Below, one piece after another: positions 2,561 through 21,974 of a stretch of DNA of 64,000 nt. The stretch is from Acidimicrobiia bacterium (lineage in GTDB: Bacteria; Acidobacteriota; Vicinamibacteria; Vicinamibacterales; SCN-69-37): the NCBI GenBank assembly GCA_045862915.1, contig BTVE01000009.1, positions 20,670-84,669 on the forward strand. The letters run 5' to 3'. How positions within the stretch are numbered: the stretch's first letter is position 1; the number at the start of each line of letters is the position of its first letter. Made by a program: the position numbers and the translations under genes. The notes beneath the pieces were generated by a model. The model saw only the letters and a program-made list of their open reading frames with translations, did no database searches and was not told the origin of the DNA.

Positions 2561-6760
<4,200 letters not shown>

Positions 6761-6776
6761 TCGGCACTCTAGCAAT

Positions 6777-6801
6777 CGTGGGCTGGACCTTCAGGTCCGG
6801 C
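6777..6801. repeat. Hairpin repeat copy A: CGTGG, 8-bp stem, TTCA loop
   Basis: CGTGG GCTGGACC TTCA GGTCCGGC lies 17 nt after the rpoC stop. It has the same architecture as the two copies at 57299-57353. Confidence 0.6.
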
Positions 6802-6807
6802 GTCAGC

Positions 6808-6843
6808 GGGCGCGGGGGACACCCTCCGCGCCCGTTGTGTTTT
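6808..6843 (+). terminator. Intrinsic terminator of rpoBC
   Basis: GGGCGCGGGGG-ACAC-CCCTCCGCGCCC forms an 11-bp stem with one G-T wobble, followed by GTTGTGTTTT. Confidence 0.65.
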
Positions 6844-7020
6844 CACGGTGAGTCCATCGATCCCGGCGAAATCAGCCGGGTTTGATGTGTACACCGGGAG
6901 GTTGTGCGCGAGGGCCGTGCTGGCGATCAGGGCATCCAACGCTCTCGCTCTGACCTTGCGCCCAGGCCTGCCTGGCCGCACGTTTGTGTCGAGGATGCCT
7001 CGCTCATGGAACGGTCGGCG

Positions 7021-7212
7021 TCACCACGTGTCGTCCAGCACCGCGTCGATGTCTTTTCGGAGCTTGGCCGGGTCGACAGACGGGAGCCGGCGCCATCGTT
7101 CCAATAAGGCGCTGGCGGACAGGGGACGCGCCGTCAACGGCCGCAGTTCAGCGATACCCCGACCGTCGCGTGTAACCACCAGTGATTCGCCGCCGATTAC
7201 GCGATCGAGCAC
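7021..7212 (-). CDS. Phd/YefM-like antitoxin, possibly N-terminally decayed
   Basis: LDRVIGGESLVVTRDGRGIAELRPL matches the Phd/YefM core. The frame stays open upstream to 7299, but the only start codon is the GTG at 7212, so about 15-20 N-terminal residues appear to be missing. Confidence 0.45.
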   Translation of the reverse strand: MLDRVIGGESLVVTRDGRGIAELRPLTARPLSASALLERWRRLPSVDPAKLRKDIDAVLDDTW

Positions 7213-7299
7213 TGCTCCGATACCTGACCCGCGCGGTCGGGCATGCGGATACAGGCGCTTTCGCGCCTGGCCCCAGAGGCACGGGATGTCAGCGTTCGC

Positions 7300-8622
7300 C
7301 TATTTCCTGACCACCACGATCGTGTCGATGCCCATCGGATTACGCCCCGCTGCCGGGGTGTTGGTGAGACTGATTGACAAGGCGTCGATGACGGCGTCGG
7401 GATGCGGATTCACGACCTGCCGAAACGCACCGAACGTGTTCGACAGTTCTCCGGTCACCGTAAACACGGTCGCGCCATTGCGTGTGCCGGTCATGGTGTA
7501 CGGGATGCGCGTGGTGCTCGAGTACAGCTCGGCGGAGAAGAACGTGAACGGGGAGTCTCCGGTGACTTCAAGGCGCCCGGTTTCCGACGTGCCACCGTCA
7601 GCGTAGAACTGAATGAACGGAGCCGGCTGCCCGTAGGTGGTCCTCGCGGCCCATCCACTCGACGTGGTGACCACGGACATTCCGAATTCCGCATACCGCT
7701 CCACCGGCGTGGCGTCGGTCTGAAGGCCCGCGAAGCCGATGGTCGTCGCGCTCGCTGGAGCCGGTGTCCTCGGTGGGGTCGTGGCGTTTGGCGTCAGCCG
7801 CACGGATACCGATTTGTCCGAGTCGAGCGTGACCGATTCGGAGGCCGACTTGAAGCCGGCTGCCGAAACGCTGAGCGTGAGTGCGCCAGCGGTGAGGCTG
7901 TCAAAACGGAAGGCGCCGCCTGCATCTGTCGTGACACTGGTGCCCATGTCAGGGCCATTGTTGACCCGTACCCGGGCACCGGCGATGCCTCCCGAGCCGT
8001 CGGTGACGGTCCCGCTCAAGGCATGACGGGTTGGTGGAGCGGCCGGTGACTCACTGGTCACCAGGGTGTCGAAGCCCATGGGATTACGACCCGTACTGGT
8101 GTTGGTCAGGGCAATCGAAATCGCATCAACGATATCGCCGTGCGGATTGTTGATGGTTCTGAAGGATCCGTACGTGTTGGAGGTCGTGCCGCTCAGCGTG
8201 AAGACGACCGCCGACTGGCGAAGTCCCTTGATGACATACGGAATAGGTGTCGTGCTCGAATAGAGGTCGACTGAGGCGAAATACGTCGGGGCCGGCAGCG
8301 TCACGAGCGCTTCGCCAACGATCGTCTGGCCGGGCTCTGCGAGAAACTGCACGAACGGTGCGGGGTTGCCGTAAGTCGTCCTGGCGCTCCAGCCGCCGGA
8401 CCGCATCAACACCGTAAAACCCGATTCCGCATACGCGGTGACGGCTTCGGCATCAACCGTCAAGCTGGAGAAGGTGAGGCGCCGGCTGTCGGCCACAGCC
8501 GCTCCGCCGGAGACCATCGCGGACACTGACGGCGCGGTTGGTCCGCCGGCCGGATTCTCCGCACACGCGGCCATGGCGGCTGCGACGACTCCACACGCAA
8601 CGAGGAACACCCGATGGGTCAT
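7300..8622 (-). CDS. Secreted, lipoprotein-like protein: two homologous ~140-aa domains flanking a CarboxypepD_reg-like domain
   Basis: I chose the ATG at 8622 because GGAGG lies 8 nt upstream. The signal sequence is MTHRVFLVACGVVAAAMAAC. The central GTVTDGSGGIAGARVRVNNG...AGGAFRFDSLTAGALTLSVSAAGF is carboxypeptidase-regulatory-like. The flanking domains share GW.ARTTYG.PAPF.QF...LYSSTT.IPY...NP.G.DT.V. Confidence 0.75.
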   Translation of the reverse strand: MTHRVFLVACGVVAAAMAACAENPAGGPTAPSVSAMVSGGAAVADSRRLTFSSLTVDAEAVTAYAESGFTVLMRSGGWSARTTYGNPAPFVQFLAEPGQTIVGEALVTLPAPTYFASVDLYSSTTPIPYVIKGLRQSAVVFTLSGTTSNTYGSFRTINNPHGDIVDAISIALTNTSTGRNPMGFDTLVTSESPAAPPTRHALSGTVTDGSGGIAGARVRVNNGPDMGTSVTTDAGGAFRFDSLTAGALTLSVSAAGFKSASESVTLDSDKSVSVRLTPNATTPPRTPAPASATTIGFAGLQTDATPVERYAEFGMSVVTTSSGWAARTTYGQPAPFIQFYADGGTSETGRLEVTGDSPFTFFSAELYSSTTRIPYTMTGTRNGATVFTVTGELSNTFGAFRQVVNPHPDAVIDALSISLTNTPAAGRNPMGIDTIVVVRK

Positions 8623-8779
8623 TGGATAGCCTCCCCTCAGACACCTTAGCGACTTGCTGTGACGGGCGCAACCAGGCGTCCCCATCGGCCGGGACGTCAC
8701 CGTACCCGTGATTCCACTGCACAGCGTCGCGGGCTCAAAACGCTGGTGCAGCCAGACCAGTCGGACACGATGGACCTGT

Positions 8780-9160
8780 CTACACCGGATCGCGTCCCAC
8801 TGCCTGGATCCGCTCGTCGAGTGTCACGAGGTCTGCGCCCAGGGCGCCGGCGAGCCAGACGTAACTCGCATCATAGGCGGTGAGCCCGGTCTCCTGCGCC
8901 ACAAGCACGGCGTCCGTCAGGTTGACGTCGACCCAGGTAATCCCACCGTCATCGAGCGCAGCACGGAGCGCTGTCAGGATGGCGACGCCGGATGCCGGTT
9001 CGCGGCGGGCCTTCTTCCAGGCCACATTCGCGAGTTCAAATTGCAGCAGTGTCGGCGCAAACAGCTCGGCATCGTGCAACAGCGGCTCGATGCGCGCGGC
9101 ATCGGGCTCCCCGAAGATCACGGCCGACAGCGCCGACGCGTCCGGAACAACACGCCTCAC
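8780..9160 (-). CDS. vapC: Type II toxin VapC (PIN domain)
   Basis: 126 aa. Acidic PIN residues lie in VVPDASAL, FELANV, LTAYDASYVWLA and LVTLDERI. There is a 4-nt overlap with the upstream antitoxin. Confidence 0.85.
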   Translation of the reverse strand: MRRVVPDASALSAVIFGEPDAARIEPLLHDAELFAPTLLQFELANVAWKKARREPASGVAILTALRAALDDGGITWVDVNLTDAVLVAQETGLTAYDASYVWLAGALGADLVTLDERIQAVGRDPV

Positions 9161-9396
9161 CGCGTATCCCTCGTCTCACGCACGATCGCCACCGCATCCG
9201 CCGGCGTCGCCAGGCCCAGTGATTCGGCTCGACGCCGGATCCTGGCGGCATCAAAGCGCACGGGCTGGACGGCGGCTTCCAGAATGGACATCAACTCGCC
9301 CTGCAGCGACCGATGGTTGCGGCTGGCTCGTGCCGCCAACGCCCGGGCCAACGGCGCTGGAACGTTCTTGATGGAGAGGCTGGTCGCAGGTTCCAT
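9157..9396 (-). CDS. vapB: Ribbon-helix-helix (Arc/FitA-like) VapB antitoxin
   Basis: The internal ATG at 9396 gives 79 aa: MEPATSLSIKNVPAPLARALAARASRNHRSLQGELMSILEAAV, the typical RHH antitoxin N-terminus. The longer track ORF (to 9612) overlaps the polB 3' end and is rejected. Confidence 0.8.
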   Translation of the reverse strand: MEPATSLSIKNVPAPLARALAARASRNHRSLQGELMSILEAAVQPVRFDAARIRRRAESLGLATPADAVAIVRETRDTR

Positions 9397-9425
9397 TGTG
9401 GTTTCATTGTAGCGCCATAATGGAA

Positions 9426-11717
9426 CTATCCGCAGACTTCCAGCACGGGCCGGATGGTCGCGACATCCCCCGCAAACAGCGAGGGCTGATCGGCGCTGCC
9501 GAACACGACGGCGAAGTCTTCCGCGCTGAACGCACACTGCAGACGGCTGGCGTAAATCTCCGTCAGTAGTCGGATGTAGTGCTCGACGTCGTAGTCGCGC
9601 GCGTCCACCCATGCACGTTCCTGATCCGACAACGACTCGGCGTCCGGGTCGGGCACCACACCCCCGTGCCCACGGAACGTACGATACACGCGCACACGTT
9701 CACCCAGGCGCCAGTCGGTGCGCCCGGCCGCGAGCAGGGCCTCGTACACCAGCTCGCGTCGCTCCCCCCTGACGCGCAGGTAGTCCTCCGGTGACTTGGT
9801 GAGTCGGACGCGGGAGGACACATCCCACGTGCTCAGTGCGCGGCGTCTGAGGTCGGTGACGGCCTCCACGTACGCCGCCCGCACACCCTGTACGTTGCCA
9901 GTCAACAACTCGCGAACCGCGCGCTGGAGGAACGCGGCCGCATACGGCTCCGTGCGGCTGGACCGGAACGCCACGCCACGCAGCAGCAGCCGATCGTCGT
10001 AGGTGAGCAACGCGTAGTTCTTGGGTTCGTGCGACAACATCGCCCGGTAACGCCCCTCGTATTCCAGGTGCACGAGCGGGGGCAACAGTGTCGCCACGTC
10101 GGCCACCAGACGACGTTCGTCGGCCTCTGACCATCCCTCGGGAACGGCAAAGTAGACGCCATCGGTATCGGCTTCGATGAGCTGCACACCACGCAGCCGC
10201 AAGGCATCACAGATCACCGTGAGGGTGTCGCGTCCGCGGCGGGTCACCTCATTGGCCGCGCGCACATCGGCGAACCTGGTGAGTCCTCCGCCGGCAGCCA
10301 TGTAGCCATACGCCGAATTGACGACCAGTTTGATTGCCGCCGACATGGCCTCATGCGCGTGGCGCTCCGCCGATCCGGGCGCCGCCTGGCGCGCCGCTGC
10401 CTTGGCGGCGAGCCGATGCTCCACGAGTTGATCGACGATGGTGAGGAGGACGCCGAGATGATCGCGCGCCGGCCCGATGCGGAACGCGCGCATCAGCGAC
10501 GGGTAGAGGCTTGCGACGTCAGCTTTGACAACCCGGTGGGCGACCCCCGTGGCAAACAGGTGCAGGGCTGCGCCGGTGTGGATGGTGCCGTCGGAATCCT
10601 GGTGCGGCGGCAGCGCAGTCCCCGTACGCAGATACGCCCGCACGAGCAGTGGATCCAGCATGCCGGTCGCGGGGCCCGCATCCGCCAATCGCTCGTAGCG
10701 GCGAGGCACCATCTGCGCGAGCGCAAACGATGCGCCACCCAGCAGGCGAGCCACACCGGCGGCCTCGTCCACGTCTGCGCGCGCGTATCGGCGCACGCGT
10801 TCAGGATCCGCGCGGTACACCCGAAACACGTCATCGCCGCGGATCAGCTCTCGCTCAGGCCCCACAAGGCCCAGGTGTCGCGCCACGGCTTTCAGTCCGT
10901 AACCAGGCAACTCGCGCACGGCGAAGTCGTACGCGCGTGTGGCGTCGAGTGTATCGATCAACTCACGGCCGGGTGCGACGAGCCTCACCCGACGCCCGGA
11001 GCCGTCATCGTCGCGCATGCCGCGCCGCGCAGCCCGACGCCGCAGCCCGAGTCCGGGCACCCGGCCCAGTTGCAATCGGACGCCGAGGACGCGGGCGCGA
11101 TGTTCAAGAAACGGCAGGTCGAACCCGTGCAGGTTGTGATTTTCGATGACGTCCGGATCGGCCGTTCGCACTGTCGACTCGAGTTGTTGCAGCAGGGTTC
11201 GTTCTCCGGCGTCGTCAACCGATGGCGCTTCCAGCAACATCGTGGTGCCGTCGGGGAGACGCACGGCGATCAGAAAAACCCTGTCGCGGCGCGGGTCGAG
11301 CCCCGTCGTTTCAATGTCGAACTGCAGGCGACGCAGGTCGTCGAAGGTCAGGCCGCGGAAGTAGTTCCGGCCGGTCGCGACGAGGTACTGCTCCTCGGGC
11401 GGCAGGTTGAGCACGCGACGTTTGTCAGGAGCCGGCCCGCAGGCGTGCCTGAGTGCTGCGGTGAGCGCGCGGCCGGTGCCCGCGCTGACGTGGAACCGCA
11501 GCGCGCCTGGCCCCTCAAGTTCGTGCCATGTGAGGCCTTCACCCGCGAATGGCTCAACATCGTCAACGATCGCCCACGGCCGGTACTGATCGTCTTCCGC
11601 GCGCAGTGTGCCGTTGATCCGGCGCCAGACGCGCGCGCGTCCGCTGCCGTCCGCCCAGATCGAGACGATGCCGGGAGTTGGGTCCCAACCCCACAGCCAT
11701 TCGTCCTGAATCGACAC
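9426..11717 (-). CDS. polB: Family B DNA polymerase (Pol II-like) with intact 3'-5' exonuclease
   Basis: ExoI FDIETTGL, ExoII NHNLHGFDLPFL, ExoIII YARADVDE. Motif A DVASLYPSLM, motif B KLVVNSAYGYM, motif C IEADTDGVYF. The GTG start shares one base with the stop of the upstream gene (TAGTG). Confidence 0.88.
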   Translation of the reverse strand: MSIQDEWLWGWDPTPGIVSIWADGSGRARVWRRINGTLRAEDDQYRPWAIVDDVEPFAGEGLTWHELEGPGALRFHVSAGTGRALTAALRHACGPAPDKRRVLNLPPEEQYLVATGRNYFRGLTFDDLRRLQFDIETTGLDPRRDRVFLIAVRLPDGTTMLLEAPSVDDAGERTLLQQLESTVRTADPDVIENHNLHGFDLPFLEHRARVLGVRLQLGRVPGLGLRRRAARRGMRDDDGSGRRVRLVAPGRELIDTLDATRAYDFAVRELPGYGLKAVARHLGLVGPERELIRGDDVFRVYRADPERVRRYARADVDEAAGVARLLGGASFALAQMVPRRYERLADAGPATGMLDPLLVRAYLRTGTALPPHQDSDGTIHTGAALHLFATGVAHRVVKADVASLYPSLMRAFRIGPARDHLGVLLTIVDQLVEHRLAAKAAARQAAPGSAERHAHEAMSAAIKLVVNSAYGYMAAGGGLTRFADVRAANEVTRRGRDTLTVICDALRLRGVQLIEADTDGVYFAVPEGWSEADERRLVADVATLLPPLVHLEYEGRYRAMLSHEPKNYALLTYDDRLLLRGVAFRSSRTEPYAAAFLQRAVRELLTGNVQGVRAAYVEAVTDLRRRALSTWDVSSRVRLTKSPEDYLRVRGERRELVYEALLAAGRTDWRLGERVRVYRTFRGHGGVVPDPDAESLSDQERAWVDARDYDVEHYIRLLTEIYASRLQCAFSAEDFAVVFGSADQPSLFAGDVATIRPVLEVCG

Positions 11718-12991
11718 TACTTCTCTTTCAGCAGCTTTTCGATCAGGCGCGCGAGTGCCGGCTCGTTCGCATCGTCGTACCCGACCATGATCAGGCGGAT
11801 GCGGCCGTGACGATCGATGATGTGGATCTGCGGGATCCCACCAACCTCGTAGGCGGCGTCGTTGGGGTTGTCAAAGTGGGTGTACGTGCCGTCGGCATTG
11901 CGCACCGAGGGCTTGCGCTGGTTCTCGACGGCGATGGGCACCGACAGCCCTTCCTTCGCGAAGTACTCACGGTCGCGTGCGAACTCGTCATCGGCCGAGA
12001 TGCCGCGATCGGTGCCGAAGTATCCGTACAGCTCCGTCGCAAACACGGCGCGGAATCCCTGTGGGCCGTACTTGGCAAGCAGGCGCTTGATGCCCGGGTA
12101 ACTCTCCTTGCAGGGGCCGCACCAGTGCGCGGTGAACTCGAGCAGTGTCACGGCGCCGGTCATCGGGAGCGTGGTATTCGGATCGGCGTTCAGCCATCGC
12201 GGCGCAGAGATCGGCGCGCCAATCGTTCCGACCAGCGCGTAACGCGCCACTACGGGGTCGAGCATCTCCGAGGCGTTCCGGATGTCGGCCCACTGCTGCT
12301 TTGCTGACTGCAGCAGCGCACGAGCGCGGTCGGTATCGCCCTGACCGGCCCAGGCTTCGGCCATGTTGATATGCGCGCTCACCACAATGGAGCCGAACTG
12401 GCTGCGCTGTGCCGGCGTGAACGTCTTGGCGCGATTGATGATCCACGTCGAGTGTTTGATGATGCCGGCATCGATGTCGTCGCCGCGGTAGTAGCCGTTC
12501 AGGCGTGAGTGCACCGCCATCTGCTGGCCGAGCAGGTCACCAGGTAACTGGTCGAGTGCGTCCGCCCAGGCTTCGAGGCGTGCATTTCGGGCATCCGATT
12601 TGGGTTCAAGTAGTCCCGCCGCAATCGCCTGCTCCAGCACCTGCGCGCGAATGGGTGCGGGCATCGTGCGGGATGCGAGCGCCCTGGTCACGGCTGCTGA
12701 CGCCAACTCAGGCTGACCGGCTTCGCCATACAGTGAGATGAGCGCCGGCATGTCCGCGTCGGTCGCGCGGTCGAGCGCAAACTGCGCCGCACACGTTTTG
12801 GCCATGGCCCGCTTCTCTGCGTCGATCCGCCGCACATCATCAGCGGTGATGGAGCGTGCGAGCGCCTGCTGCGCGGTGCGCACGTAGGTGCGCGCCTGGG
12901 TGAGACACCCGTCCGGTGTGGCAGGTTGCGGGGTCTGCGGCTGAGCCGGGTGGGCCAGCAGCGTCACAAACATCACGGTGGGGATGAACAT
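11717..12991 (-). CDS. TlpA-like periplasmic thiol-disulfide oxidoreductase with a long helical N-terminal domain
   Basis: Signal peptide MFIPTVMFVTLLAHPAQP. The C-terminal thioredoxin fold carries LLEFTAHWCGPCKESYPG. Confidence 0.8.
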   Translation of the reverse strand: MFIPTVMFVTLLAHPAQPQTPQPATPDGCLTQARTYVRTAQQALARSITADDVRRIDAEKRAMAKTCAAQFALDRATDADMPALISLYGEAGQPELASAAVTRALASRTMPAPIRAQVLEQAIAAGLLEPKSDARNARLEAWADALDQLPGDLLGQQMAVHSRLNGYYRGDDIDAGIIKHSTWIINRAKTFTPAQRSQFGSIVVSAHINMAEAWAGQGDTDRARALLQSAKQQWADIRNASEMLDPVVARYALVGTIGAPISAPRWLNADPNTTLPMTGAVTLLEFTAHWCGPCKESYPGIKRLLAKYGPQGFRAVFATELYGYFGTDRGISADDEFARDREYFAKEGLSVPIAVENQRKPSVRNADGTYTHFDNPNDAAYEVGGIPQIHIIDRHGRIRLIMVGYDDANEPALARLIEKLLKEK

Positions 12992-12993
12992 GT

Positions 12994-14871
12994 CTACTCC
13001 TGCAGGCCTCTCTGAAGGAACGCCACAAAACGCGCGCGGTCGCGGGTGAGTCCGCCAAACGCGACGACCGGTGTGCCGGTCGGTTGCAGCACGGCGTAAT
13101 AGGGCAGAGCCACCGTGCCAAACACCTCTCGCTGCATCTGCTGGAATCGTGTGTAGGTCTCGCCGACGCCGTCAGTGTACAGCCGCACCCGCACGAACCG
13201 GGACAGCGCCTGCTCGACCTCAGGCTCGGTGAACATGTTGGCTTCCATCCAGCGGCAGTTGGTGCACGTGTAGCCGGTGAAGTCGACCAGCACCGGCTGG
13301 CCGGTCTGTCGAGCGGCGGTCAACGCGGCCTCGTAGTCGTTGACAATCCACGCCAGTTCGCCGTGCTGGCCACCGCCGAGGTCTCCCGGCGGCAGGAACG
13401 CTTCGAGTTCTCCCAGACGACGGCCAGCCAGGCCGGAGGCCAGATACACCGCGAGGACTGCCGTGAGCGCGGTGCCTGCGAGGCGCAGTGCGCCTGGCCG
13501 GCTCAACCGTGGCGCATGGCCAAGACGCAGTACACCCGCGAGGTAGGCCACCAGCACGAGTGCCAGCAGCGTCCAGGCAGTGAGCACGACCGGACGCGTG
13601 AAGATGCCCCAGTTCCAGATCAGGTCCACATTCGAGAGGAACTTGAACGCAGCCGCCAGTTCAAGCAGGCCCATGACCGCCTTTACCGAGAGCAGCCATC
13701 CGCCTGCGCGCGGTAACTGCGCCAGCCGATGTGGCGCCCACGCAAGCACAACAAACGGGATGGCAAACACCGACGCAAACGTCACCAGTCCTGCCAAAGG
13801 CCACTGCCAGTCGCCGGCCGCCGCCACCACAAGCAACGTCCCCAGGAACGGCGCCGTGCACGTGAACGACGTCAGCGTGAAGGCGAGGGCCATCAGGAGG
13901 GTGCCCGCCACGCGACCACGCCCCCGTTCGGCGCCCGACGCGCGCGTGAGCCACGACGAAGGCAGCGTCAGGTTGAACACGCCAAACAGGCTCAGCGCAA
14001 ACGTCAGGAACAACGCCGTGATCGCAAGGTTGAGCCATGGATTCGCGGCGAACTGATTGAGGCCGGCCGCGCCAAATCCCAGGGCGATGACCAGCCCGAC
14101 CCCGGCAAACGTCAGCACGATGCCCGCGCCGTACAACAGCGCGTCGCTGACGGCCGTCCGGGATCCGCGCTCCGCGCGCGCGGTGAAATACGACACCGTG
14201 ATGGGCACCATCGGGAAGACACACGGTGTCAGCAGCGACAGCGCGCCCATCAGTGCCGCCAGCGCGAGGTATCCCGCCAGGCTGGTCGCAGCGCTCGACG
14301 CCGCCATGTCCTCGACATTGGCGGTGCCGCTGCCCGCAACGACGGCCCCTGATGCCACGGTGACTGTCGCGTCCGCACCGGTGCCGGGCACACGCAGCGC
14401 AATCGTCACCGTGTCGGTCACCGCGGGCAGGCAGAAACGATCGGTGCATGTCTGATACGTCAGCGTCACCGTGCCGGTGACCACGCCGGACCCGTCGGCC
14501 GGGATCGAGAGGGGCACATAAAACGTGGCCGCCTCGGTATGTGAGTGTGTGTCGATGTTGAAGTTGGGATCAGGCGCGATGAATGGCAGCGGCCCGATGG
14601 GGGCGCCAAAAAGCGCGAGCGGAGACTGTGCCGGCGTGGCGATGACCAGGGGCTGCGGGCCGCCGGGCTCCTGCGTCAACGCGTACAACTTCCATCCGGG
14701 TTCGATCGTGGCGTCGAGGACCAGTTCCGTCGTGCCGCCTGCGGTGACCGGCGCGGTGGCGTCCACCGCACCCTTCCAGGTCACCACCTGCTGCGCAGCC
14801 GCGGACGTGGCATGAGCGAACAGCAGCACGGCCACGAAGATCCGGATCCCGCCAATGCGCATGCTGCGCAT
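12994..14871 (-). CDS. dsbD: Thiol:disulfide interchange protein DsbD-like
   Basis: N-terminal periplasmic domain (YQTCTDRFCLP). Membrane core with LLTPCVFPMVPIT and SFTCTAPFLG. C-terminal thioredoxin DFTGYTCTNCRWME. Confidence 0.85.
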   Translation of the reverse strand: MRSMRIGGIRIFVAVLLFAHATSAAAQQVVTWKGAVDATAPVTAGGTTELVLDATIEPGWKLYALTQEPGGPQPLVIATPAQSPLALFGAPIGPLPFIAPDPNFNIDTHSHTEAATFYVPLSIPADGSGVVTGTVTLTYQTCTDRFCLPAVTDTVTIALRVPGTGADATVTVASGAVVAGSGTANVEDMAASSAATSLAGYLALAALMGALSLLTPCVFPMVPITVSYFTARAERGSRTAVSDALLYGAGIVLTFAGVGLVIALGFGAAGLNQFAANPWLNLAITALFLTFALSLFGVFNLTLPSSWLTRASGAERGRGRVAGTLLMALAFTLTSFTCTAPFLGTLLVVAAAGDWQWPLAGLVTFASVFAIPFVVLAWAPHRLAQLPRAGGWLLSVKAVMGLLELAAAFKFLSNVDLIWNWGIFTRPVVLTAWTLLALVLVAYLAGVLRLGHAPRLSRPGALRLAGTALTAVLAVYLASGLAGRRLGELEAFLPPGDLGGGQHGELAWIVNDYEAALTAARQTGQPVLVDFTGYTCTNCRWMEANMFTEPEVEQALSRFVRVRLYTDGVGETYTRFQQMQREVFGTVALPYYAVLQPTGTPVVAFGGLTRDRARFVAFLQRGLQE

Positions 14872-14889
14872 TGTGGCACGTATGACCGG

Positions 14890-15804
14890 TTATGGCCGAT
14901 CGCAGATCAGGGTGAGGTAGTCCTGCGCTTCGGCGAGGGTGACCGCCGATGTCGCGTCGGACAGCAGCACGAGGTCATGACCGTCCAAGTAGCGTGTGCG
15001 GAATCCGAGGGTAGTCAGCTCGCCAAGGAACGCAGCCGGGTCCGTGCCAAGCGTGCGCAGCCCGTGCGGCCAGAACTCGAGGATCATCACCAGACCTGGA
15101 TGTGACGTCAGTACCGTGCGACCGCCCCTGATGATCTGCCCCTCGGCGCCCTGGGCATCCATCTTGATGACGTCGATCCGCTGGCCGGGCCGTTCGGCAA
15201 AGTAGGCGTCGAGTGTGGTGGTGGGCACAGTGACCGCACCACCTTCGCCGTGCTGGACATTCTGCGCGGAGACCGAGTGCGCGCCGAAGTTGCCTTCCGA
15301 GAGGAACAGCGTCAGCGTTCCCACCTCGTCGGACACGGCCACGGGCACGGCCGTGACGTTGGTGAACCCGTTGATCGTCGCGTGGTTGGCCAGCAACTCG
15401 AAGTTGCGTGGCGATGGCTCGAAGGCGAAGACGTGGCCCTGGGGGCCCACCCGCTGCGCCGCCAACATCGCGTGATAGCCGAAGTTCGCGCCAATGTCGA
15501 CGAGGACGCTGCCGGGTGACAGGAACCCGAGGATCAAGTCCCGTTCCTCGGGTTCCCATTCACCGTAGGTCAGCAGATTGCGGGCGACTACTTCGTCCTG
15601 GCTGTCCAACTGCCACGTCAGTCCCTGCGCCTGGATGCGCATCATCCCGCGCGGGCGCAGCACCGCGTAGAACGGCGCTCGCAGCACCTGGTAGACCCGC
15701 TTGTACACCGGTCCAATTCCCAGGCGATTGGCGGTCTGTTGTGCGGCCAGCGTGAGGCGCCGGAGGCGCGCAAACACAGCCAGCTTCAGCGACGGTGACG
15801 ACAC
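14890..15804 (-). CDS. FkbM-family SAM-dependent methyltransferase
   Basis: VLVDIGANFGYHAMLAA...VFAFEPSPRNFELL...IDVIKMDAQGAEG is typical of the FkbM family. Confidence 0.75.
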   Translation of the reverse strand: MSSPSLKLAVFARLRRLTLAAQQTANRLGIGPVYKRVYQVLRAPFYAVLRPRGMMRIQAQGLTWQLDSQDEVVARNLLTYGEWEPEERDLILGFLSPGSVLVDIGANFGYHAMLAAQRVGPQGHVFAFEPSPRNFELLANHATINGFTNVTAVPVAVSDEVGTLTLFLSEGNFGAHSVSAQNVQHGEGGAVTVPTTTLDAYFAERPGQRIDVIKMDAQGAEGQIIRGGRTVLTSHPGLVMILEFWPHGLRTLGTDPAAFLGELTTLGFRTRYLDGHDLVLLSDATSAVTLAEAQDYLTLICDRP

Positions 15805-15826
15805 CGTCGCAGTCTACACCGTTGCG

Positions 15827-17566
15827 TCAGTCCTTCTTGAACGTGACGAAGACGTCGATCGTGACGTCGACCGGCCGGCCGTTGAGTTCCGTCGGCGTGA
15901 ACTGCCACTGCTGCACGGCCTGGATCACGGCCGCAGCCGCATCCGGATTTGCCGCCGGTGCGCCCTCATCGTCGACCACGGTGGCGTCCTGGACCACTCC
16001 GCCCGTGTCGATCCGGGCTCGCACGTGCACCGGGAACTCACCGGACCCGAGTCCAGCGGGACACGCCGGCAACACGTGTTTGATTTTTTTCGGTTCACGG
16101 ATCTGCCCGCCGATGCGAACCGGCTGCTGTTGCGCTGAGAGCACTGGGAACAACGTCTCCCAGAGGCGTGTGGACAGGGAGGCGCACGTGACGGTCACCG
16201 TCTCGCGTAATGTACCGAGCTTGAGTGTCAACGTGTGGTCAATCGTACCGCCCGTCGCCTGCACGACAACCTTCACCGGTGCGAAGCCGGAGAGTCTCGC
16301 CTCGAGGTTGTAGGTGGCCGGAGCCACGTTGGGAAAGCTGAAGCGCCCGGGTGCGTTGGTGCGGACCTCGGTCTGAGCGCCGGTCTGCGGATCGGTCAGC
16401 GTGACCGTCGCGCCCGGAATCCGTCCGCCCGACTGGTCTTCCACCTGCCCGGTGATCGTGGCTGTCTGCGGCGTCACACGGCGCGGTGGGACAACGGCCG
16501 GCGGTGTCGTGGTGCCAGGCGCCGGTGGTGCCGCGGGCCGGACGACCGAGGGCGGCTGCTGTTCGAGCTGCGCGAGGTCGTCGGTCGCCGGCGAGACACT
16601 CGCTGCAGCAATGGGGAGACTGACGACAAGTGTGGCGAGTGCCGCGAGGCTCCATCCCCAACGACTGACCGGCGTGCGACGCGTGTGATTCTGCAACATG
16701 GCAACGATTCTCCTCTCGAGCATGGACGGGTGAACGATGGCCGGGGCCGACATCCACGGAGTGTGTCGCGCCGAAAGCCGGTGTGAGAGTTCAAGCAGGT
16801 GTGTGGCGTACTCGGTGGCGCGCACACCCTGGCGCAGCACCGCATCATCACAGGCGTGTTCGCTGTGCCGGCGTAACTGACGGCAGGCGAGCCAGACCAG
16901 CGGATGAAAGGAATACAGGACGCGGACGGCCTCACCCAACGTCTGGATCGCCGCATCAGCGCGGGCAATGTGGGCGACCTCGTGCTGGAGCACCACACGC
17001 CACCGTTCGTCGCTCCAGGACGTCGCGTCCGTGGGCACGATGATGCCAGGCCGGCGGGTGCCGTAGGTGACCAGCAGCGACTCCGACTCGGTTTGCAGCA
17101 ATCGAATCGGCCGGCTCACGCCAAAGTCGGACGCCACGCCGGAGAGGATCACGCGCGGACCGCCGTGTATCTCGCGAGCGGTTGTCCGCAGGCGCGCGAG
17201 CCGGTAGCGGCCGGTCAACAGCCCGGCCAGCAGCACCAGCGAGGCCGCGCCCCACAGGCCGATCACCACCCTCATTGGCGTGAGGAACGGCTCGCCGGCA
17301 GGTGTCTCGATTGTGGTCGCGATGTCCGCCGCGTCCGACGCGAACGTCACTCCTGACGAGGTCGCGGCTGTCGCGGCGGGCCACTGAAAGACCGTGCGTG
17401 CGGGCAGCGTCCACTCAAGCAGCGGCATGGCGGCCGCAGCGACAAGCGCCGACGTGAGGATGGCGTGCCGCAGTGCCGCGGAGCGCGAGCGGAGCAGCCA
17501 CGCCAGCAGCAGGCCAATCGCCAGGACGATGGTGACATCGACAACGACGGCAAGTAGAAACGTCAT
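15827..17566 (-). CDS. BlaR1-like M56 membrane metalloprotease fused to CarboxypepD_reg and TonB_C-like domains
   Basis: N-terminal TM segments, Zn motif LQHEVAHIARAD, GQVEDQSGGRIPGATVTLTD...FSFPNVAPATYNLEARLSGF, and a C-terminal TonB_C-like GGVVQDATVVDD...AVQQWQFTPTELNGRPVDVTIDVFVTF. No penicillin-binding sensor domain was seen. Confidence 0.8.
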   Translation of the reverse strand: MTFLLAVVVDVTIVLAIGLLLAWLLRSRSAALRHAILTSALVAAAAMPLLEWTLPARTVFQWPAATAATSSGVTFASDAADIATTIETPAGEPFLTPMRVVIGLWGAASLVLLAGLLTGRYRLARLRTTAREIHGGPRVILSGVASDFGVSRPIRLLQTESESLLVTYGTRRPGIIVPTDATSWSDERWRVVLQHEVAHIARADAAIQTLGEAVRVLYSFHPLVWLACRQLRRHSEHACDDAVLRQGVRATEYATHLLELSHRLSARHTPWMSAPAIVHPSMLERRIVAMLQNHTRRTPVSRWGWSLAALATLVVSLPIAAASVSPATDDLAQLEQQPPSVVRPAAPPAPGTTTPPAVVPPRRVTPQTATITGQVEDQSGGRIPGATVTLTDPQTGAQTEVRTNAPGRFSFPNVAPATYNLEARLSGFAPVKVVVQATGGTIDHTLTLKLGTLRETVTVTCASLSTRLWETLFPVLSAQQQPVRIGGQIREPKKIKHVLPACPAGLGSGEFPVHVRARIDTGGVVQDATVVDDEGAPAANPDAAAAVIQAVQQWQFTPTELNGRPVDVTIDVFVTFKKD

Positions 17567-17955
17567 TGGTCTTCCTCCTTGCGCGCCTCGTCGATCAGCG
17601 CGGCAATCCGTGCGAGTTGTTCGTCCGTCAGCTTCGCGGCCTCTCCGCCGAGCAGGGCAGCCACGGCCTGTTCTGGGGACCCATCAAAAAAGGTGTCGAC
17701 GACGTGGCGCAGGGCGGAGCGGCGGGCCGTCTGGCGCGCGGCAACGGGCGCATACACATACCGCACCCCATCGTCGTGGTGCCGCACATGCCCCTTGCGT
17801 TCGAGGACACGCAGCTGCGTGCGGACCGTCGAGGACGTGGTGTCGGCCGGCAGGTCGGCCATGACCTCGGCGGCGGTGGCACGTCCGCGGCGGAAGAGGA
17901 TGTCCATGATTTCGCGTTCGCGGCGGGAGAGGGTGGCGTGGGGGTGTTTCGGCAT
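17563..17955 (-). CDS. blaI: BlaI/MecI/CopY-family transcriptional repressor
   Basis: LSRREREIMDILFRRGRATAAEVMADLP...STVRTQLRVLERKGHV is a winged-helix Penicillinase_R type. There is a 4-nt overlap with the downstream blaR1-like gene. Confidence 0.88.
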   Translation of the reverse strand: MPKHPHATLSRREREIMDILFRRGRATAAEVMADLPADTTSSTVRTQLRVLERKGHVRHHDDGVRYVYAPVAARQTARRSALRHVVDTFFDGSPEQAVAALLGGEAAKLTDEQLARIAALIDEARKEEDQ

Positions 17956-17994
17956 TGTTATTTTTGTCGCACCTTGTGTGCGAGAAAAATAACA
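17956..17994. promoter_or_regulatory. Candidate BlaI operator: 17-5-17 AT-rich dyad
   Basis: TGTTATTTTTGTCGCAC-CTTGT-GTGCGAGAAAAATAACA has arms complementary at 16 of 17 positions. It abuts the blaI start codon in the divergent blaI/MFS intergenic region and is the most AT-rich stretch I noticed. Confidence 0.6.
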
Positions 17995-18014
17995 GTCATG
18001 GCCGGGTGTGTCAA
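17986..18014 (-). promoter_or_regulatory. Candidate sigma70-type promoter of the blaI operon
   Basis: On the minus strand: TTGACA (18014-18009), a 17-nt spacer, TATTTT (17991-17986). The -10 box sits inside the right arm of the dyad. Confidence 0.5.
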
Positions 18015-18053
18015 GCCCACCCGCCTTTACGCCCCGGGGCTCTCTCGTCTACC

Positions 18054-19535
18054 ATGCGCCCACCCCACATGGCGACGTCCCGCGACCTTTCCCCAGCCCA
18101 GATCCGCCAGGTCATCACCGCATCGGCGGTCGGCACGATGATCGAGTGGTACGACTTCTACATTTTCGGGAGTCTGGCGACCATCATTGCGCCGCGGTTT
18201 TATCCGGCAGGTAACGACACACTCGCACTGATTGCCTACCTGTCCACGTTTGCCGTGGGCTTTGTGGTGCGTCCGTTTGGCGCGCTGGTGTTTGGACGGA
18301 TCGGTGACCTGGTCGGACGCAAGTATGCGTTTCTGGTGACGCTGATCCTCATGGGGGCATCGACCGCGCTGGTCGGCGTGTTGCCCACCTACGAAACGAT
18401 CGGAATGCTCGCGCCGGCAGCCTTGCTGGTGATTCGTGTGTTGCAGGGGCTTGCGCTCGGCGGCGAGTACGGTGGTGCTGCCGTGTACGTCGCAGAGCAC
18501 GTCCCCGATCATCGCCGCGGCTTCTACACCAGCTTCATCCAGATCACGGCGACGCTTGGCCTCTTCGTCTCGCTCATTGTCATCCTCGCCGTGCAGTCGA
18601 TGGTCGGGCCGGAGGCGTTTGCCGCCTGGGGCTGGCGCGTGCCGTTCCTGGTCTCGATCGGCCTGGTGGCGATTTCGCTCTACATCCGGCTGCGCATGCA
18701 GGAGTCGCCGATCTTTGAACATCTGAAGACACAGGGCATGACATCGGCCCGCCCGCTCAAGGAGGCGTTCACCGAGTGGCCGAACCTCAAGCGTGTGCTG
18801 GTCTCGTTGTTTGGTGCCACCGCCGGACAAGGTGTCGTCTGGTACACCGGGCAGTTTTATGCGTTGTTCTAGCTGCAGACGGTGCTGAAGGTGCACCCCA
18901 CCTCGGCCAACTACATCATTGCGACCGCGTTGCTGCTGGGCCTGCCGCTGTTTGTGATCATGGGCGCGTTGTCCGACCACGTCGGCCGCAAGCGTCTGAT
19001 GCTGGCCGGTTGCCTGCTGGCGGCGCTGGCGTATCTGCCGATTTACCAGGCAATGCAGGTCGCCGCCGGCAGTGACGTGGTGACGGCGATCTCTCAGCGG
19101 CATCCGATCACCGGAGCCATTTCACTCACGCCGATGACGATGCAGGACGGCGCGCTCGTGCCGGCCGCGCAGGTGCTGCCGTTCACCAGTGCCGCCGCGT
19201 TGTTTGCGTCAGGCACCGCCTGGACGCTGATCGGGCTGGTCTGGATCCAACTGGTGTTCGTCGCGATGGTGTATGGCCCGATTGCGGCGTATCTCGTTGA
19301 GGCGTTCCCTGCGCGCATTCGATACACGGCGTTGTCTCTGCCGTATCACATTGGCAACGGCGTCTTCGGCGGCTTGTTGCCGCTCATCGGCCTCTCAGTG
19401 GTTGCCGAAACCGGCAACATCTACGCCGGGCTGTACTATCCGATTGCGGTGGCGCTGATCACGGTGGTCGTTGGCGCCATCTGGCTTCAGGAAACCCATC
19501 ACCATCGCATCTGGGACGAGGTGGAACCACGATGA
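18054..19535 (+). pseudogene. MHS-type MFS transporter (ProP/KgtP-like) interrupted by an in-frame TAG
   Basis: Track ORFs 17955-18872 and 18882-19535 are in the same frame. The sequence reads ...VVWYTGQFYALF-TAG-LQTVLKVHPTSANYII, and each half has about 6 TM helices. The start is ATG 18054 or 18069 (MATSRDLSPAQIRQVITASAVGTMIEWYDFYIFG). Confidence 0.7.
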
Positions 19536-20803
19536 CCCGCATTCGCATCGGCCTGCTGGCCACGTTCGTCTGGGCGCTGTACGTTGTCGGCACATCGGCC
19601 GCCCCGGCGCAGGCCCAGAGCGCCGGTCTCGACCGTGCCCGCCTGGCGCACCTCGATCGCGTACTTGATGAACATGTCGCCTCGGGCCGGTTGCCTGGCG
19701 CCGTCGCGCTGGTCCTGCGTGACGGACAGGTCGTGTATGAGCGTGCCGTCGGATTTGCTGACCGGGAGGCCGGTGTGCCGATGGCGGCAGACTCGCTGTT
19801 CCGGATCGCCTCGCAGACCAAGGCCATCACCAGCGTTGCGGCCTTGATGCTGATGGAGGAGGGGCGGCTGCAACTGACCGACCCCATCAGCCGGTGGATG
19901 CCGACGTTCGCGAAGCCGGTCGTGGCGGTGGCAGGCACGGATGGCGCGACGGTGCGGGAACCTGCTCGCCGTGCCATTCGCGTGAACGACCTGCTCCTGC
20001 ACACCGCAGGGCTGTCGTACGGGACAGGCGCACGGGTCGCCGCAGAGTACGAAGCGGCTGGTCTTGGCCCGGCGGCGGGTTACGGCTGGTACACGGCCGA
20101 TAAGGCCGAGCCGATCTGCGCCACGATGGATCGCCTTGGCACGTTGCCGCTTGTCGCCCAGCCCGGAGAGGCCTGGGTGTACGGCTACGCCACCGACGTC
20201 CTCGGCTGTATCGTCGAGCGCGTGAGCGGCATGACGCTGGACACGTTTTTCCAGAGCCGGATCACCGGCCCGTTGGGGATGAACGACACGCACTTCTTTC
20301 TGCCGGCCGACAAGGCACGACGTCTCGCCGCCGTGTACGCCAGCGATGGCGACGGCAAAGCCATCCGCGCGCCCGAAGGATCGCGTGGGCAGGGGCACTA
20401 CACGACAGGACCACGCGCCAGTTACTCCGGCGGAGCCGGACTCGTGTCGACCGCACGCGACTACGCGCGACTGCTCGAGATGGTTCGACGCGGCGGCGAA
20501 CTCGATGGCGTTCGCCTGCTGTCGCCGCGCACGGTTGCCCTGATGACCACCAATCAGGTTGGAACGCTCCACTCGTCAGCGGGGCTGGGGTGGGGACTGG
20601 CCTTCGAGACCACGGATCGCCTGGGTGCCAACGGGCTGAGCGCACCGGGATCGTTCGGATGGGGAGGCGCGTACGGCTCGGTCTACCGCGTTGATCCGGA
20701 GGCCGGACTCACCATGGTGCTGCTGATTCAGCTGATACCCAATTCGACCGACATTCGAACGTTGTTCCCCACGCTGGTCACACAGGCCGTGGTGGGGAGG
20801 TAG
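19532..20803 (+). CDS. Beta-lactamase-family serine hydrolase (class C / esterase-like), secreted
   Basis: Signal peptide MTRIRIGLLATFVWALYVVGTSAAPAQA. SxxK motif in FRIASQTKAITSVAALML. ATGA overlap with the MFS stop. Confidence 0.8.
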   Translation: MTRIRIGLLATFVWALYVVGTSAAPAQAQSAGLDRARLAHLDRVLDEHVASGRLPGAVALVLRDGQVVYERAVGFADREAGVPMAADSLFRIASQTKAITSVAALMLMEEGRLQLTDPISRWMPTFAKPVVAVAGTDGATVREPARRAIRVNDLLLHTAGLSYGTGARVAAEYEAAGLGPAAGYGWYTADKAEPICATMDRLGTLPLVAQPGEAWVYGYATDVLGCIVERVSGMTLDTFFQSRITGPLGMNDTHFFLPADKARRLAAVYASDGDGKAIRAPEGSRGQGHYTTGPRASYSGGAGLVSTARDYARLLEMVRRGGELDGVRLLSPRTVALMTTNQVGTLHSSAGLGWGLAFETTDRLGANGLSAPGSFGWGGAYGSVYRVDPEAGLTMVLLIQLIPNSTDIRTLFPTLVTQAVVGR

Positions 20804-21974
20804 GCGTCCGGGCACGCACCAGCGTCCAGACCGGAATCAGCGACAGGCCCAGGCCCACGAGACTCAGCGCCGGAAATCCCGTGCGCGCCAGTAACCAGCC
20901 GGACGACAGGCTGGCGATCGCGCTGCCGCCCCAGATCAGGCTGTCCCCGGCGCCCTGCACACGCACACGGTGCTCAGGCGCGGTGCTGTCAGTCAGCAGT
21001 GCGCTGCCGCCGACAAAACCGAAGTTCCATCCCAGACCCAGCAGGAACAACGACACGGTCATCCACAGATAACTGCCGTCGCCGAGTGCGCCGATCAGGC
21101 ACGCCAGGACGAGGAGCGCCAGGCCCGTCCACAGCAGTGCGAATCGGCCGTAGCGATCGCCGATGCGGCCGGTGATCGGCGAAAACGCGAACATCCCCAG
21201 CGTGTGCGCCGAAATGACACCACCAATCGCCGACAGTTCGTGACCTTCATGGCGCAGATGCAGCGGCGTCATGGTCATCAGCAGCACCATCACGAACTGG
21301 CCGATCACCATCACAAGCAGCGCCAATCGCACGCCGGGGACGACAAGCAACTCGCGCAGGGGCACCAGGGACTGCGGGCGGGCGGCTTCACGTGTGGCCG
21401 CGTCCATGGCCGTCGGCGCGGTGAACATGATGGCGGCCGACACTACGCAAGCGACCAGGCACGCAACCAGGGGACCGGCCAGGGTGTTGATCTGCAGCCA
21501 ATGCGCCAGGTGCGTGGAGGGCCCCAGCAACGACGGGCCGGCTACCGCACCAATGGTGGAGGCCCAGACGATCCAGCCGATCATCGTGGCGCGACGGTCG
21601 GCGCTGTAGAGGTCCGCCACGACGTAGCGCGCCAGGCGATTGGAGCCGAAGCCCGCGCCGAAGAAAAACAGCGCGACGACAAACGTCAGGAACTGCTGTG
21701 TGAGGATGGCGCCGATGGCCGTGGTGATCGCGACCGCAGCCAGCAGGTACCCAAGCGCGAGTCCCGTGCGTGCGCCGCGCCGCCGGACCAGCGCTGCCAG
21801 GGCGGTGGCTCCCGCCGCCGTGCCGAGGACGGTGGCGGCCGCGGGCAGACCGGTCCACGTCGCGTGACCGGTCAGGTCTTCCGCCACCAATCCGTTCACG
21901 GTGTTGGACGCCAGGAAGCCGGTCGTCGAGACCGCCACACTCCCGAACACCGCGCCAAACGCGCGCCGAGTCAC
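20778..21974 (-). CDS. MFS transporter
   Basis: 398 aa, about 12 hydrophobic segments, typical MFS loop GRIGDRYGR. Its 3' end overlaps the convergent hydrolase gene by 26 nt. Confidence 0.75.
   Translation of the reverse strand: MTRRAFGAVFGSVAVSTTGFLASNTVNGLVAEDLTGHATWTGLPAAATVLGTAAGATALAALVRRRGARTGLALGYLLAAVAITTAIGAILTQQFLTFVVALFFFGAGFGSNRLARYVVADLYSADRRATMIGWIVWASTIGAVAGPSLLGPSTHLAHWLQINTLAGPLVACLVACVVSAAIMFTAPTAMDAATREAARPQSLVPLRELLVVPGVRLALLVMVIGQFVMVLLMTMTPLHLRHEGHELSAIGGVISAHTLGMFAFSPITGRIGDRYGRFALLWTGLALLVLACLIGALGDGSYLWMTVSLFLLGLGWNFGFVGGSALLTDSTAPEHRVRVQGAGDSLIWGGSAIASLSSGWLLARTGFPALSLVGLGLSLIPVWTLVRARTPTSPPRPV

Follow-up and report, generated by a model that had tools for sequence, protein, structure and literature searches.

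The eight minus-strand genes at positions 8780-17955 of the window (the whole 64,000-nucleotide stretch of DNA that was analyzed) are probably a lineage-specific mosaic directon of Vicinamibacterales (Acidobacteriota) rather than a dedicated system. Five modules of separate history would have been united by one rearrangement ancestral to a single, narrow sub-genus clade of soil Acidobacteria: an autoregulated blaI-blaR1-like pair, an orphan fkbM gene, a dsbD-tlpA pair, an accessory and patchily distributed polB, and a mobile vapBC module. The ancestral order appears to have been dsbD-tlpA-trx2, in which trx2 is a second secreted thioredoxin-domain gene. In this clade, dsbD and tlpA would have been parted from trx2 and set behind blaR1-fkbM, and polB would have been fused right at the tlpA stop codon (TAGTG), occupying the translationally coupled slot of trx2. 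The comparisons described below reveal the module boundaries, a single origin of the arrangement and its lack of wider conservation. The thiol reductase and the DNA polymerase would be neighbors through history, and no conserved link in function is seen between them.

Open reading frames of the region were recomputed and searched against Pfam and NCBIfam. A first-pass annotation had described the string as blaI, blaR1-like, fkbM, dsbD, tlpA-like, polB, vapB and vapC, and all eight genes were recovered with the same family assignments. Recalculated from coordinates, the seven junctions measure -4, 22, 18, 2, -1 (TAGTG), 29 and -4 nt, as had been reported. The fkbM/dsbD gap is 27 nt instead of 18 if dsbD starts at its second ATG, which is the start picked by the gene caller in the related contig L220. 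The co-directional run counts nine genes, because a CarboxypepD_reg gene at 7300-8700 continues on the minus strand. This layout leaves at least dsbD-tlpA-polB without space for intergenic promoters. Genome-wide, a crude ORF caller placed 59% of co-directional neighbor pairs within 30 nt of each other and found 44 directons of at least eight genes, as well as nine runs of at least eight genes with no junction longer than 30 nt; the compactness of the string is not exceptional in this genome. GC and GC3 are even across the string, with no compositional trace of recent import. A repeat search detected no IS-like ends and no module flanked by direct or inverted repeats, and no RNA family was matched in 6500-20000 by an Rfam scan (E <= 0.1).

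It had also been noted that the string has a lone strong promoter and no obvious internal terminator, and our analyses bear out both observations. The sole sigma-70-like site found in a scan of 8600-18200 is TTGACA-17-TATTTT at 18014-17986, in front of blaI. It overlaps a predicted 17-5-17 dyad operator at 17956-17994 (promoter and operator together span 17956-18014, minus strand), and both elements are kept upstream of the orthologous blaI genes in G012, G010, G016, G006 and L220. The dyad occurs nowhere else in the window or in the whole genome; when further BlaI operators were sought within the string or the genome, the only copies were the two dyad arms at the blaI promoter. Two weak terminator-like hairpins are present in the string, both within ORFs, and neither is convincing; the mean after shuffling is higher, at 4.1.

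The first module begins with blaI (17563-17955, minus strand), whose 130-residue product matches Penicillinase_R (PF03965) over its full length with 92 bits. This protein is 100% identical in L220, 98% identical in G012 and about 73% identical in other members of the genus. With its winged helix and candidate dyad operator, it is a predicted repressor of the BlaI/MecI type. The adjacent blaR1-like gene (15827-17566, minus strand) encodes a predicted M56 membrane protease with a Peptidase_M56 match of 93 bits at residues 9-289 and an HEVAH (HEXXH) motif at residue 195; the NCBIfam blaR1_generic model aligns with residues 81-291 only, reaching 67 bits where the cut-off is 400. As in known BlaI/BlaR1 (MecI/MecR1) systems, the Penicillinase_R repressor gene overlaps the gene for the M56 HEXXH metalloprotease by 4 nt, and the pair's promoter shares sequence with the dyad operator. 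Unlike in those systems, the repressor gene comes first, and Pfam searches of the C-terminal part of the protease found no penicillin-binding (transpeptidase-like) sensor domain, CarboxypepD_reg and TonB_C domains standing where the extracellular sensor would be. In three of four other genomes (G016, G015 and G006), the orthologous pair has the same promoter and dyad and is followed by a convergent gene, which makes it a stand-alone two-gene unit there, whereas the pair here has acquired four to six unrelated genes downstream.

The FkbM-family methyltransferase gene that comes next (14890-15804, minus strand; Methyltransf_21/TIGR01444) is a rare orphan. No orthologue was found in 18 relatives, where the top match is 35% identical, and only three homologues above 50% identity exist among 5.8 billion clusters. 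One of them (55%) lies behind a gene of about 236 codons on a contig that also has a Wzy_C gene, and another (61%) lies on a short contig behind a gene similar to that one.

The third module is a reducing pathway. The dsbD gene (12994-14871, minus strand) encodes a predicted three-domain thiol:disulfide electron transporter (DsbD_N, DsbD_TM and Thioredoxin_7). Its product has exactly six cysteines, arranged as pairs 142/147, 217/338 and 536/539, such that the alpha, beta and gamma domains each carry one pair; it scores 157 bits against the NCBIfam DsbD model, which has a subfamily cut-off of 330. The neighboring tlpA gene (11717-12991, minus strand) encodes a TlpA-like, presumably secreted thioredoxin-fold protein of 424 residues with an N-terminal hydrophobic leader, a helical/TPR-like N-terminal part (a weak TPR match) and a CGPC motif at residues 291-294. 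Its Redoxin and Thioredoxin matches are weak (Redoxin, 27.1 versus 26.6), and the NCBIfam TlpA/ResA models, at about 20 bits, fall far short of their cut-offs (170-230). Homologues are annotated in the source databases as "TlpA disulfide reductase family protein". At all genus loci examined, dsbD adjoins tlpA.

In G014, G009 and Logan contig L227, trx2 orthologues come straight after tlpA. The trx2 orthologue of this window (21971-23209, minus strand; Thioredoxin_7/Thioredoxin) lies elsewhere, about 9 kb from dsbD-tlpA. The arrangement resembles known DsbD-TlpA/CcmG/ResA pathways in that a six-cysteine, three-domain DsbD is encoded beside a presumably secreted CxxC thioredoxin-fold protein, a pair kept genus-wide; it differs from them in the length and helical/TPR-like N-terminal part of the TlpA-like protein, which falls far under the family cut-offs, and in the removal of the ancestral second thioredoxin partner to that distant site. 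At loci of the ancestral type, trx2 starts 3 nt past the tlpA stop codon and its Shine-Dalgarno sequence lies within the 3' end of tlpA; the tlpA 3' end here still holds a remnant of that sequence. The junction reads AAGGAGAAATAGACCATG (trx2) in the ancestral type versus AAAGAGAAGTAGTG (polB) in the genome under study (G000). The coupling of tlpA to polB, which the first-pass annotation had regarded as functionally unexpected, is explained by the apparent replacement of trx2, a gene predicted to have been coupled to tlpA ancestrally, by polB. Where tlpA meets polB, G000 and G012 show a sliding identity of 0.86-0.87, below the peaks of 0.88-0.90 inside tlpA, which gives no indication of a hidden element. 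Because the intergenic space is gone, dsbD, tlpA and polB would now be co-transcribed and probably translationally coupled, with transcription supplied by read-through from the blaI promoter or by promoters buried in upstream coding sequence.

The string was then placed among relatives, whose genes were called with a crude ORF and GC3 caller. Contigs L220/L221 carry all eight genes at 93% nucleotide identity to G000. In G012, blaI-blaR1 lies at the edge of one contig and dsbD-tlpA-polB on a second one, the assembly being broken between blaR1 and dsbD. L138 and L226, which come from one sample and show about 78% nucleotide identity, contain blaR1-fkbM-dsbD and dsbD-tlpA-TAGTG-polB start. The TAGTG overlap is conserved in all four clade members, and in a TlpA tree G000, L220/L221, G012 and the L138/L226 lineage form one clade with support of 100/100; the sister clade (G014 and L227) and G009 have trx2 after tlpA. 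The six-gene core and its junctions (22, 18-19, 2-3 and -1 nt) have been retained in these four lineages across nucleotide divergence of about 22-24%. Such persistence of the core would fit selection for the arrangement, but also plain inheritance.

The polB gene (9426-11717, minus strand) encodes a B-family DNA polymerase with a proofreading exonuclease. Exo I-III and Pol A-C were all recovered in a motif pattern search (DIE134, NLHGFD195, YARAD311, DVASLYPS400, KLVVNSAYG463 and EADTDG), and the C terminus carries a predicted clamp-binding motif, QPSLF744. The best PDB matches are archaeal PolB proteins, over residues 105-715, with a lower score for E. coli Pol II. An identity as E. coli-type Pol II (G1) was rejected, since the top Pol II model, whose cut-off is 570, gave 96.6 bits. 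E. coli polB (Pol II) is SOS-regulated. Like that enzyme, the protein encoded here is an accessory proofreading B-family polymerase of a bacterium; unlike it, it falls in another group, its gene lies behind a periplasmic redox gene and there is no space for a LexA box. The product probably belongs to the uncharacterized bacterial G3 group (Pol-epsilon-N-like), to which it is assigned by its motifs and which has no experimentally studied member. Features of this group, namely its motifs, the motif C glutamate and the beta-clamp motif, have been set out previously (Kazlauskas et al. 2020, PMC7544198; Nucleic Acids Res 2026, PMC12926913), and the protein shares with it the canonical N-terminal/exonuclease/polymerase architecture with intact motifs, the glutamate ahead of DTD, the C-terminal QPSLF and a scatter over many phyla. 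Its role would be that of its family, i.e., accessory, accurate, clamp-dependent synthesis, with no mechanistic tie to disulfide reduction.

Occurrence of polB is patchy: it was found in 13 of 61 related genomes, including 12 of the 20 within the genus. There, G002 and G007 have degraded copies, and the G016 copy is broken up by a frameshift or an assembly error. Family members elsewhere (61-73% identical) occur in Acidobacteriota, Gemmatimonadota, Myxococcota and Chloroflexota. We inspected 160 of these wider polB loci (80 from genomes and 80 from metagenomes), and none had a homologue of tlpA, dsbD, blaR1, fkbM or vapBC within 6-9 kb. A conserved polB partner of any kind was also sought by all-against-all ORF clustering and rejected, since even the largest neighbor family is present at only 10 of the 80 genome loci and reflects local synteny within Gemmatimonadaceae. 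Of 19 genomes searched, 16 have tlpA orthologues, and in just two of them, G000 and G012, does polB come after tlpA. The adjacency of polB to tlpA/dsbD was therefore not seen in any phylogenetically independent lineage, either in the 160 wider loci or in the genus, where G012 is the only other genome with it and all carriers form one clade. In relatives, the adjacency is shared within that clade and was not seen beyond it, which largely matches the outcome that the first-pass annotation had named as refuting its reading, an adjacency that is unique and hence accidental.

The last two genes form a predicted type II toxin-antitoxin module. They encode the RHH antitoxin VapB (9157-9396, minus strand; 79 residues; FitA-like_RHH, 38 bits) and the PIN-domain toxin VapC (8780-9160, minus strand; 126 residues; PIN, 46 bits), in which visual inspection of the translation shows acidic residues D7, E42, D96 and D114. 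In G012, vapB is 86% identical and the module lies at another site, 5.8 kb from polB. Despite the different sites, about 45 nt before the vapB ATG (9397-9441, minus strand), with a TACAAT -10-like hexamer and TCCA/TGGA palindromes, are common to G000 and G012, and the similarity ends farther upstream; the region is also present in L220. The 4-nt RHH/PIN gene overlap, the acidic residues, the palindromic promoter-like upstream region and the variable location among relatives are all as in VapBC modules, and we saw no feature unusual for them. The module would be transcribed independently. The functional linkage of BlaI/BlaR1, DsbD-TlpA, the polymerase and VapBC implied by the first-pass annotation is not borne out by these data, given the confinement of the adjacency to one narrow clade and the separate site of vapBC in G012 with its own promoter/operator-like 45 nt.

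Several other explanations were weighed against the mosaic. The modules might be packed together yet transcriptionally independent, each served by a promoter embedded in its upstream neighbor's 3' end, and the string would then have no regulatory meaning. This is unlikely: TACAAT does lie between the polB stop and the vapB start, in a region that moves with vapBC, and acidobacterial promoters may differ from those modeled by the sigma-70 scan used, but at the scan threshold no promoter-like site was found upstream of fkbM, dsbD or polB. In addition, dsbD is missing the divergent intergenic region of about 130 nt that precedes it in G009, and the 2-nt gap, the 1-nt overlap and the Shine-Dalgarno remnant in the upstream gene resemble coupled translation.

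It is a good deal less probable that the string is one regulated operon, in which a BlaR1-like envelope sensor lifts BlaI repression and co-induces all genes as a stress response. The single strong promoter with its genome-unique candidate operator at the head, the lack of convincing internal terminators, the absence of promoter space at junctions of -4 to 29 nt and the core order preserved in four related lineages are what such an operon would have. However, each module is found separately elsewhere in the genus. The blaI-blaR1 pair usually stands alone behind the same operator, polB lacks such neighbors in the 160 loci elsewhere, and vapBC has its own promoter-like region and is located elsewhere in G012. 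Long tight directons are common in this genome, and read-through from blaI may happen, yet as a by-product of rearrangement and not as a designed regulon.

A small mobile or accessory island of polB and vapBC, inserted after tlpA and with the toxin-antitoxin module stabilizing polB, is very improbable and was largely rejected: polB is patchy and often decayed within the genus, the gene content of the polB-rpoC interval differs among G000, L220 and G012, and G000/G012 similarity ends exactly at the polB stop codon, but adjacency of vapBC to polB is confined to G000 and L220/L221, with none in G012 and none in the 160 wider loci, no integrase, transposase or flanking repeat was found, GC3 of polB and vapC equals that of adjacent genes, and the nearest polB relatives lie within the genus, such that relocation inside the genome fits better than import.

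It is similarly remote that the rearrangement placed the reducing pathway and the proofreading, clamp-binding polymerase under the BlaI/BlaR1-like envelope sensor, such that envelope or thiol stress would raise the polymerase; if true, a link from envelope sensing to DNA synthesis or repair would have newly evolved here and been maintained by selection.

Read as a mosaic, the locus is a clean case of polB occupying a translationally coupled slot left by a thioredoxin gene. It also carries a caution: in compact GC-rich genomes, rearrangement readily leaves unrelated genes overlapping at start and stop codons or separated by short junctions, and such features can last across species. Since they arise easily, tight packing alone is no sign of shared function. 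In soil Acidobacteria and Gemmatimonadota, the G3-like bacterial PolB is a stand-alone accessory gene that is often relocated and often lost, and its distribution provides useful background for the study of that polymerase group.

The string under study consists of eight minus-strand genes: blaI (17563-17955), blaR1-like (15827-17566), fkbM (14890-15804), dsbD (12994-14871), a tlpA-like gene (11717-12991), polB (9426-11717), vapB (9157-9396, with its ATG at 9396) and vapC (8780-9160). A ninth co-directional gene (7300-8700) extends it. The ORF list, together with Pfam and NCBIfam matches, backed every assignment made in the first-pass annotation, and every component comes from known families. 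Characteristic residues are intact in the M56 protease encoded by the blaR1-like gene (HEVAH), DsbD (six cysteines in three pairs), the TlpA-like protein (CGPC), PolB (DIE, NxxxFD, YxxxD, DxxSLYPS, KxxxNSxYG and DTD, with QPSLF close to the C-terminus) and VapC (PIN acidic residues). The junctions, from blaI to vapC, measure -4, 22, 18, 2, -1, 29 and -4 nt, exactly as first described, and the tlpA/polB overlap, TAGTG at 11717, was read directly from the sequence. A consensus scan likewise gave a single promoter-like site, the one first described (TTGACA-17-TATTTT, 18014-17986), and only two terminator-like hairpins were detected, both weak, inside ORFs and fewer than the shuffled expectation, in agreement with the reported lack of an obvious internal terminator. 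As an observation, the first-pass annotation is accurate.

Compactness is a trait of the genome and is not special to this locus. In the source assembly (G000, 4.5 Mb in 180 contigs; window G000:C9:20670-84669), a rough gene caller based on ORFs and GC3, which called ~3,150 genes and missed small ones, placed 59% of co-directional neighbor pairs in overlap or <=30 nt apart, with 4-nt overlaps in 15% and 1-nt overlaps in ~4% of pairs, 44 directons with at least 8 genes, and 9 runs of at least 8 genes in which all junctions are <=30 nt. An Rfam search returned no match, and we found no repeats bounding the modules, no compositional anomaly along the string and no unusual conservation at the tlpA-polB junction.

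Of 61 related genomes, 13 have the polymerase gene (12 among the 20 from the genus and one from another genus of the family), and its neighbors vary from genome to genome. Three genus members carry damaged copies: G007 (L027 = G007:C64) has lost all but residues ~5-31 and 581-761, fused by an internal deletion that leaves ~205 aa; G002 (L026 = G002:C32) retains N-terminal residues 4-232 (about 230 residues); and G016 (L023 = G016:C3) has two frames split at approximately residue 111, the result of either a frameshift or faulty assembly. These copies suggest weak selection on polB. Among the genomes compared, polB often starts with GTG near an upstream stop, and the residues before its conserved EWLWGW motif vary in number and sequence. 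Two papers (PMC7544198, PMC12926913) describe the uncharacterized bacterial G3 group of B-family polymerases as having an active exonuclease, a clamp motif and a motif-C glutamate. The window polB shares all three features in a motif comparison (exonuclease motifs, motif-C glutamate and clamp motif), and would fit the G3 group.

Adjacency of polB to tlpA, when sought in relatives, was confined, among the genus genomes searched, to G000 and a second genome, G012. The wider polymerase family has >540 loci in the genome collection and >540 in the metagenome collection; the best 160 of these, 61-73% identical, are spread over Acidobacteriota, Gemmatimonadota, Myxococcota and Chloroflexota (one Limnocylindrales MAG). 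None of these 160 has a tlpA, dsbD, blaR1, fkbM, vapB or vapC homolog within 6-9 kb, and no recurrent neighbor family was seen beyond local synteny. Identity this high between phyla suggests that polB has moved horizontally more than once as a solitary gene, by a vehicle that is not obvious. In every family locus (L058-L219) polB is a single gene, in varied contexts.

The string is shared by a few close relatives. Logan contigs L220-L225 (93% nucleotide identity) have the whole series, blaI-blaR1-fkbM-dsbD-tlpA-polB-vapBC, with unchanged junctions. Two contigs from one sample (L138 and L226, ~78% nucleotide identity) contain blaR1-fkbM-dsbD, and dsbD-tlpA with TAGTG and the N-terminal part of polB behind it. 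In G012, blaI-blaR1 runs off a contig end, and another contig has dsbD-tlpA-polB, with dsbD present from residue 59 onward and TAGTG again at the tlpA/polB overlap. These carriers, four lineages with G000 included, formed one clade with 100/100 support in a maximum-likelihood, midpoint-rooted TlpA tree. The simplest reading would be one rearrangement in the clade ancestor, with vapBC moving later.

Orthologs of tlpA occur in 15 of 18 other genus genomes searched (62-82% identical), adjoining polB only in G000 and G012, and dsbD and tlpA are adjacent in all loci examined. In the sister clade (G014 and contig L227) and in G009, which lies across the midpoint root, tlpA is directly followed by a 400-aa secreted thioredoxin-domain gene, trx2. 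The window ortholog of trx2 (21971-23209, minus strand) now stands fourth in a kinase operon, and in G009 the opposite flank of dsbD is occupied by the ortholog of window gene 26780-29212; these flanks place the ancestral dsbD-tlpA site between 23209 and 26780. The MFS gene (20778-21974) and trx2 were the ancestral downstream partners of dsbD-tlpA (G009, G014, L227), and three signaling genes (23206-26695) fill its former position in the clade, so the five-gene kinase operon (20778-26695) is likewise a mosaic. Ancestral-type loci (L029 3568-3620, L227 307-334) have a dsbD-tlpA spacer of ~30-50 nt that holds a free-standing GGAG-type ribosome-binding site; in the polB clade the spacer has shrunk to 2-3 nt (window 12992-12993), and AGGAG lies within the dsbD 3' end.

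Loci of the ancestral type have AAGGAGAAATAGACCATG at the 3' end of tlpA; trx2 uses a Shine-Dalgarno sequence within tlpA, and its ATG follows the tlpA stop at a distance of 3 nt. The equivalent position in G000 reads AAAGAGAAGTAGTG, and its GTG is the polB start. The polymerase gene thus took a position where translational coupling was already in place. The TlpA-polymerase coupling had been called unexpected; the overlap is real, but inheritance of the trx2 slot explains it.

The remaining modules have other distributions. Orthologs of blaI (~73% identical) and blaR1 (~47-50%) have the same TTGACA promoter and dyad, and the promoter with its 17-5-17 dyad (TGTTATTT.T.TCGCA ... TGCGA.AAAAATAACA, window 17956-18014) is kept upstream of blaI genus-wide (L054, L055, L057, L053, L220), with no second copy of the operator in the G000 genome. 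In G016, G015 and G006 a convergent gene directly follows blaI-blaR1, which identifies a self-contained pair there. No fkbM ortholog was detected in 18 relatives, and only three homologs >50% identical in a large protein collection (5.8 billion clusters); those at 55% (on a contig with a Wzy_C gene) and 61% (on a short contig) overlap by 4 nt an unannotated upstream gene of 236-237 aa (L139 3679-5306). In G012, vapBC lies 5.8 kb from polB and adjoins rpoC; it is 86-90% identical to that of G000 and keeps the same ~45 nt upstream, with TACAAT and TCCA/TGGA palindromes, beyond which similarity stops.

Three close relatives differ in the genes that lie beyond the polB stop codon, up to the rpoC end (window 6760-9430; L017 5273-12134; L220 8736-13198): vapBC, a CarboxypepD_reg protein and a decayed TA pair in G000; vapBC, three unknown genes, an ECF sigma factor and another PIN gene in L220; and a 314-aa unknown gene, the same CarboxypepD_reg protein as in G000, a 752-aa peroxidase-domain protein, an SLT transglycosylase and vapBC in G012. 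The segment looks like a local hot-spot of gene gain and loss.

A functional tie of the polymerase with the redox or envelope modules is very improbable. Since dsbD appears to have lost its own upstream region (~130 nt in G009), with 18-27 nt now separating it from fkbM, dsbD-tlpA-polB would be transcribed from upstream: either transcripts from the blaI promoter read through, or promoters lie within blaR1 or fkbM. Judged from the gene arrangement, co-transcription of the three genes is fairly likely, and read-through from the blaI promoter as far as these genes has slightly less than an even chance. Translation of polB is probably coupled to that of tlpA. The vapBC pair most likely has its own promoter and, because TACAAT ends 9 nt before the ATG, a near-leaderless mRNA. 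Overall, the string consists of five modules with separate histories in an arrangement of single origin and without wider association, and the proposed linkage of BlaI/BlaR1, DsbD-TlpA, the polymerase and VapBC arose by chance in one lineage, through rearrangement, and was passed on to a few related species.
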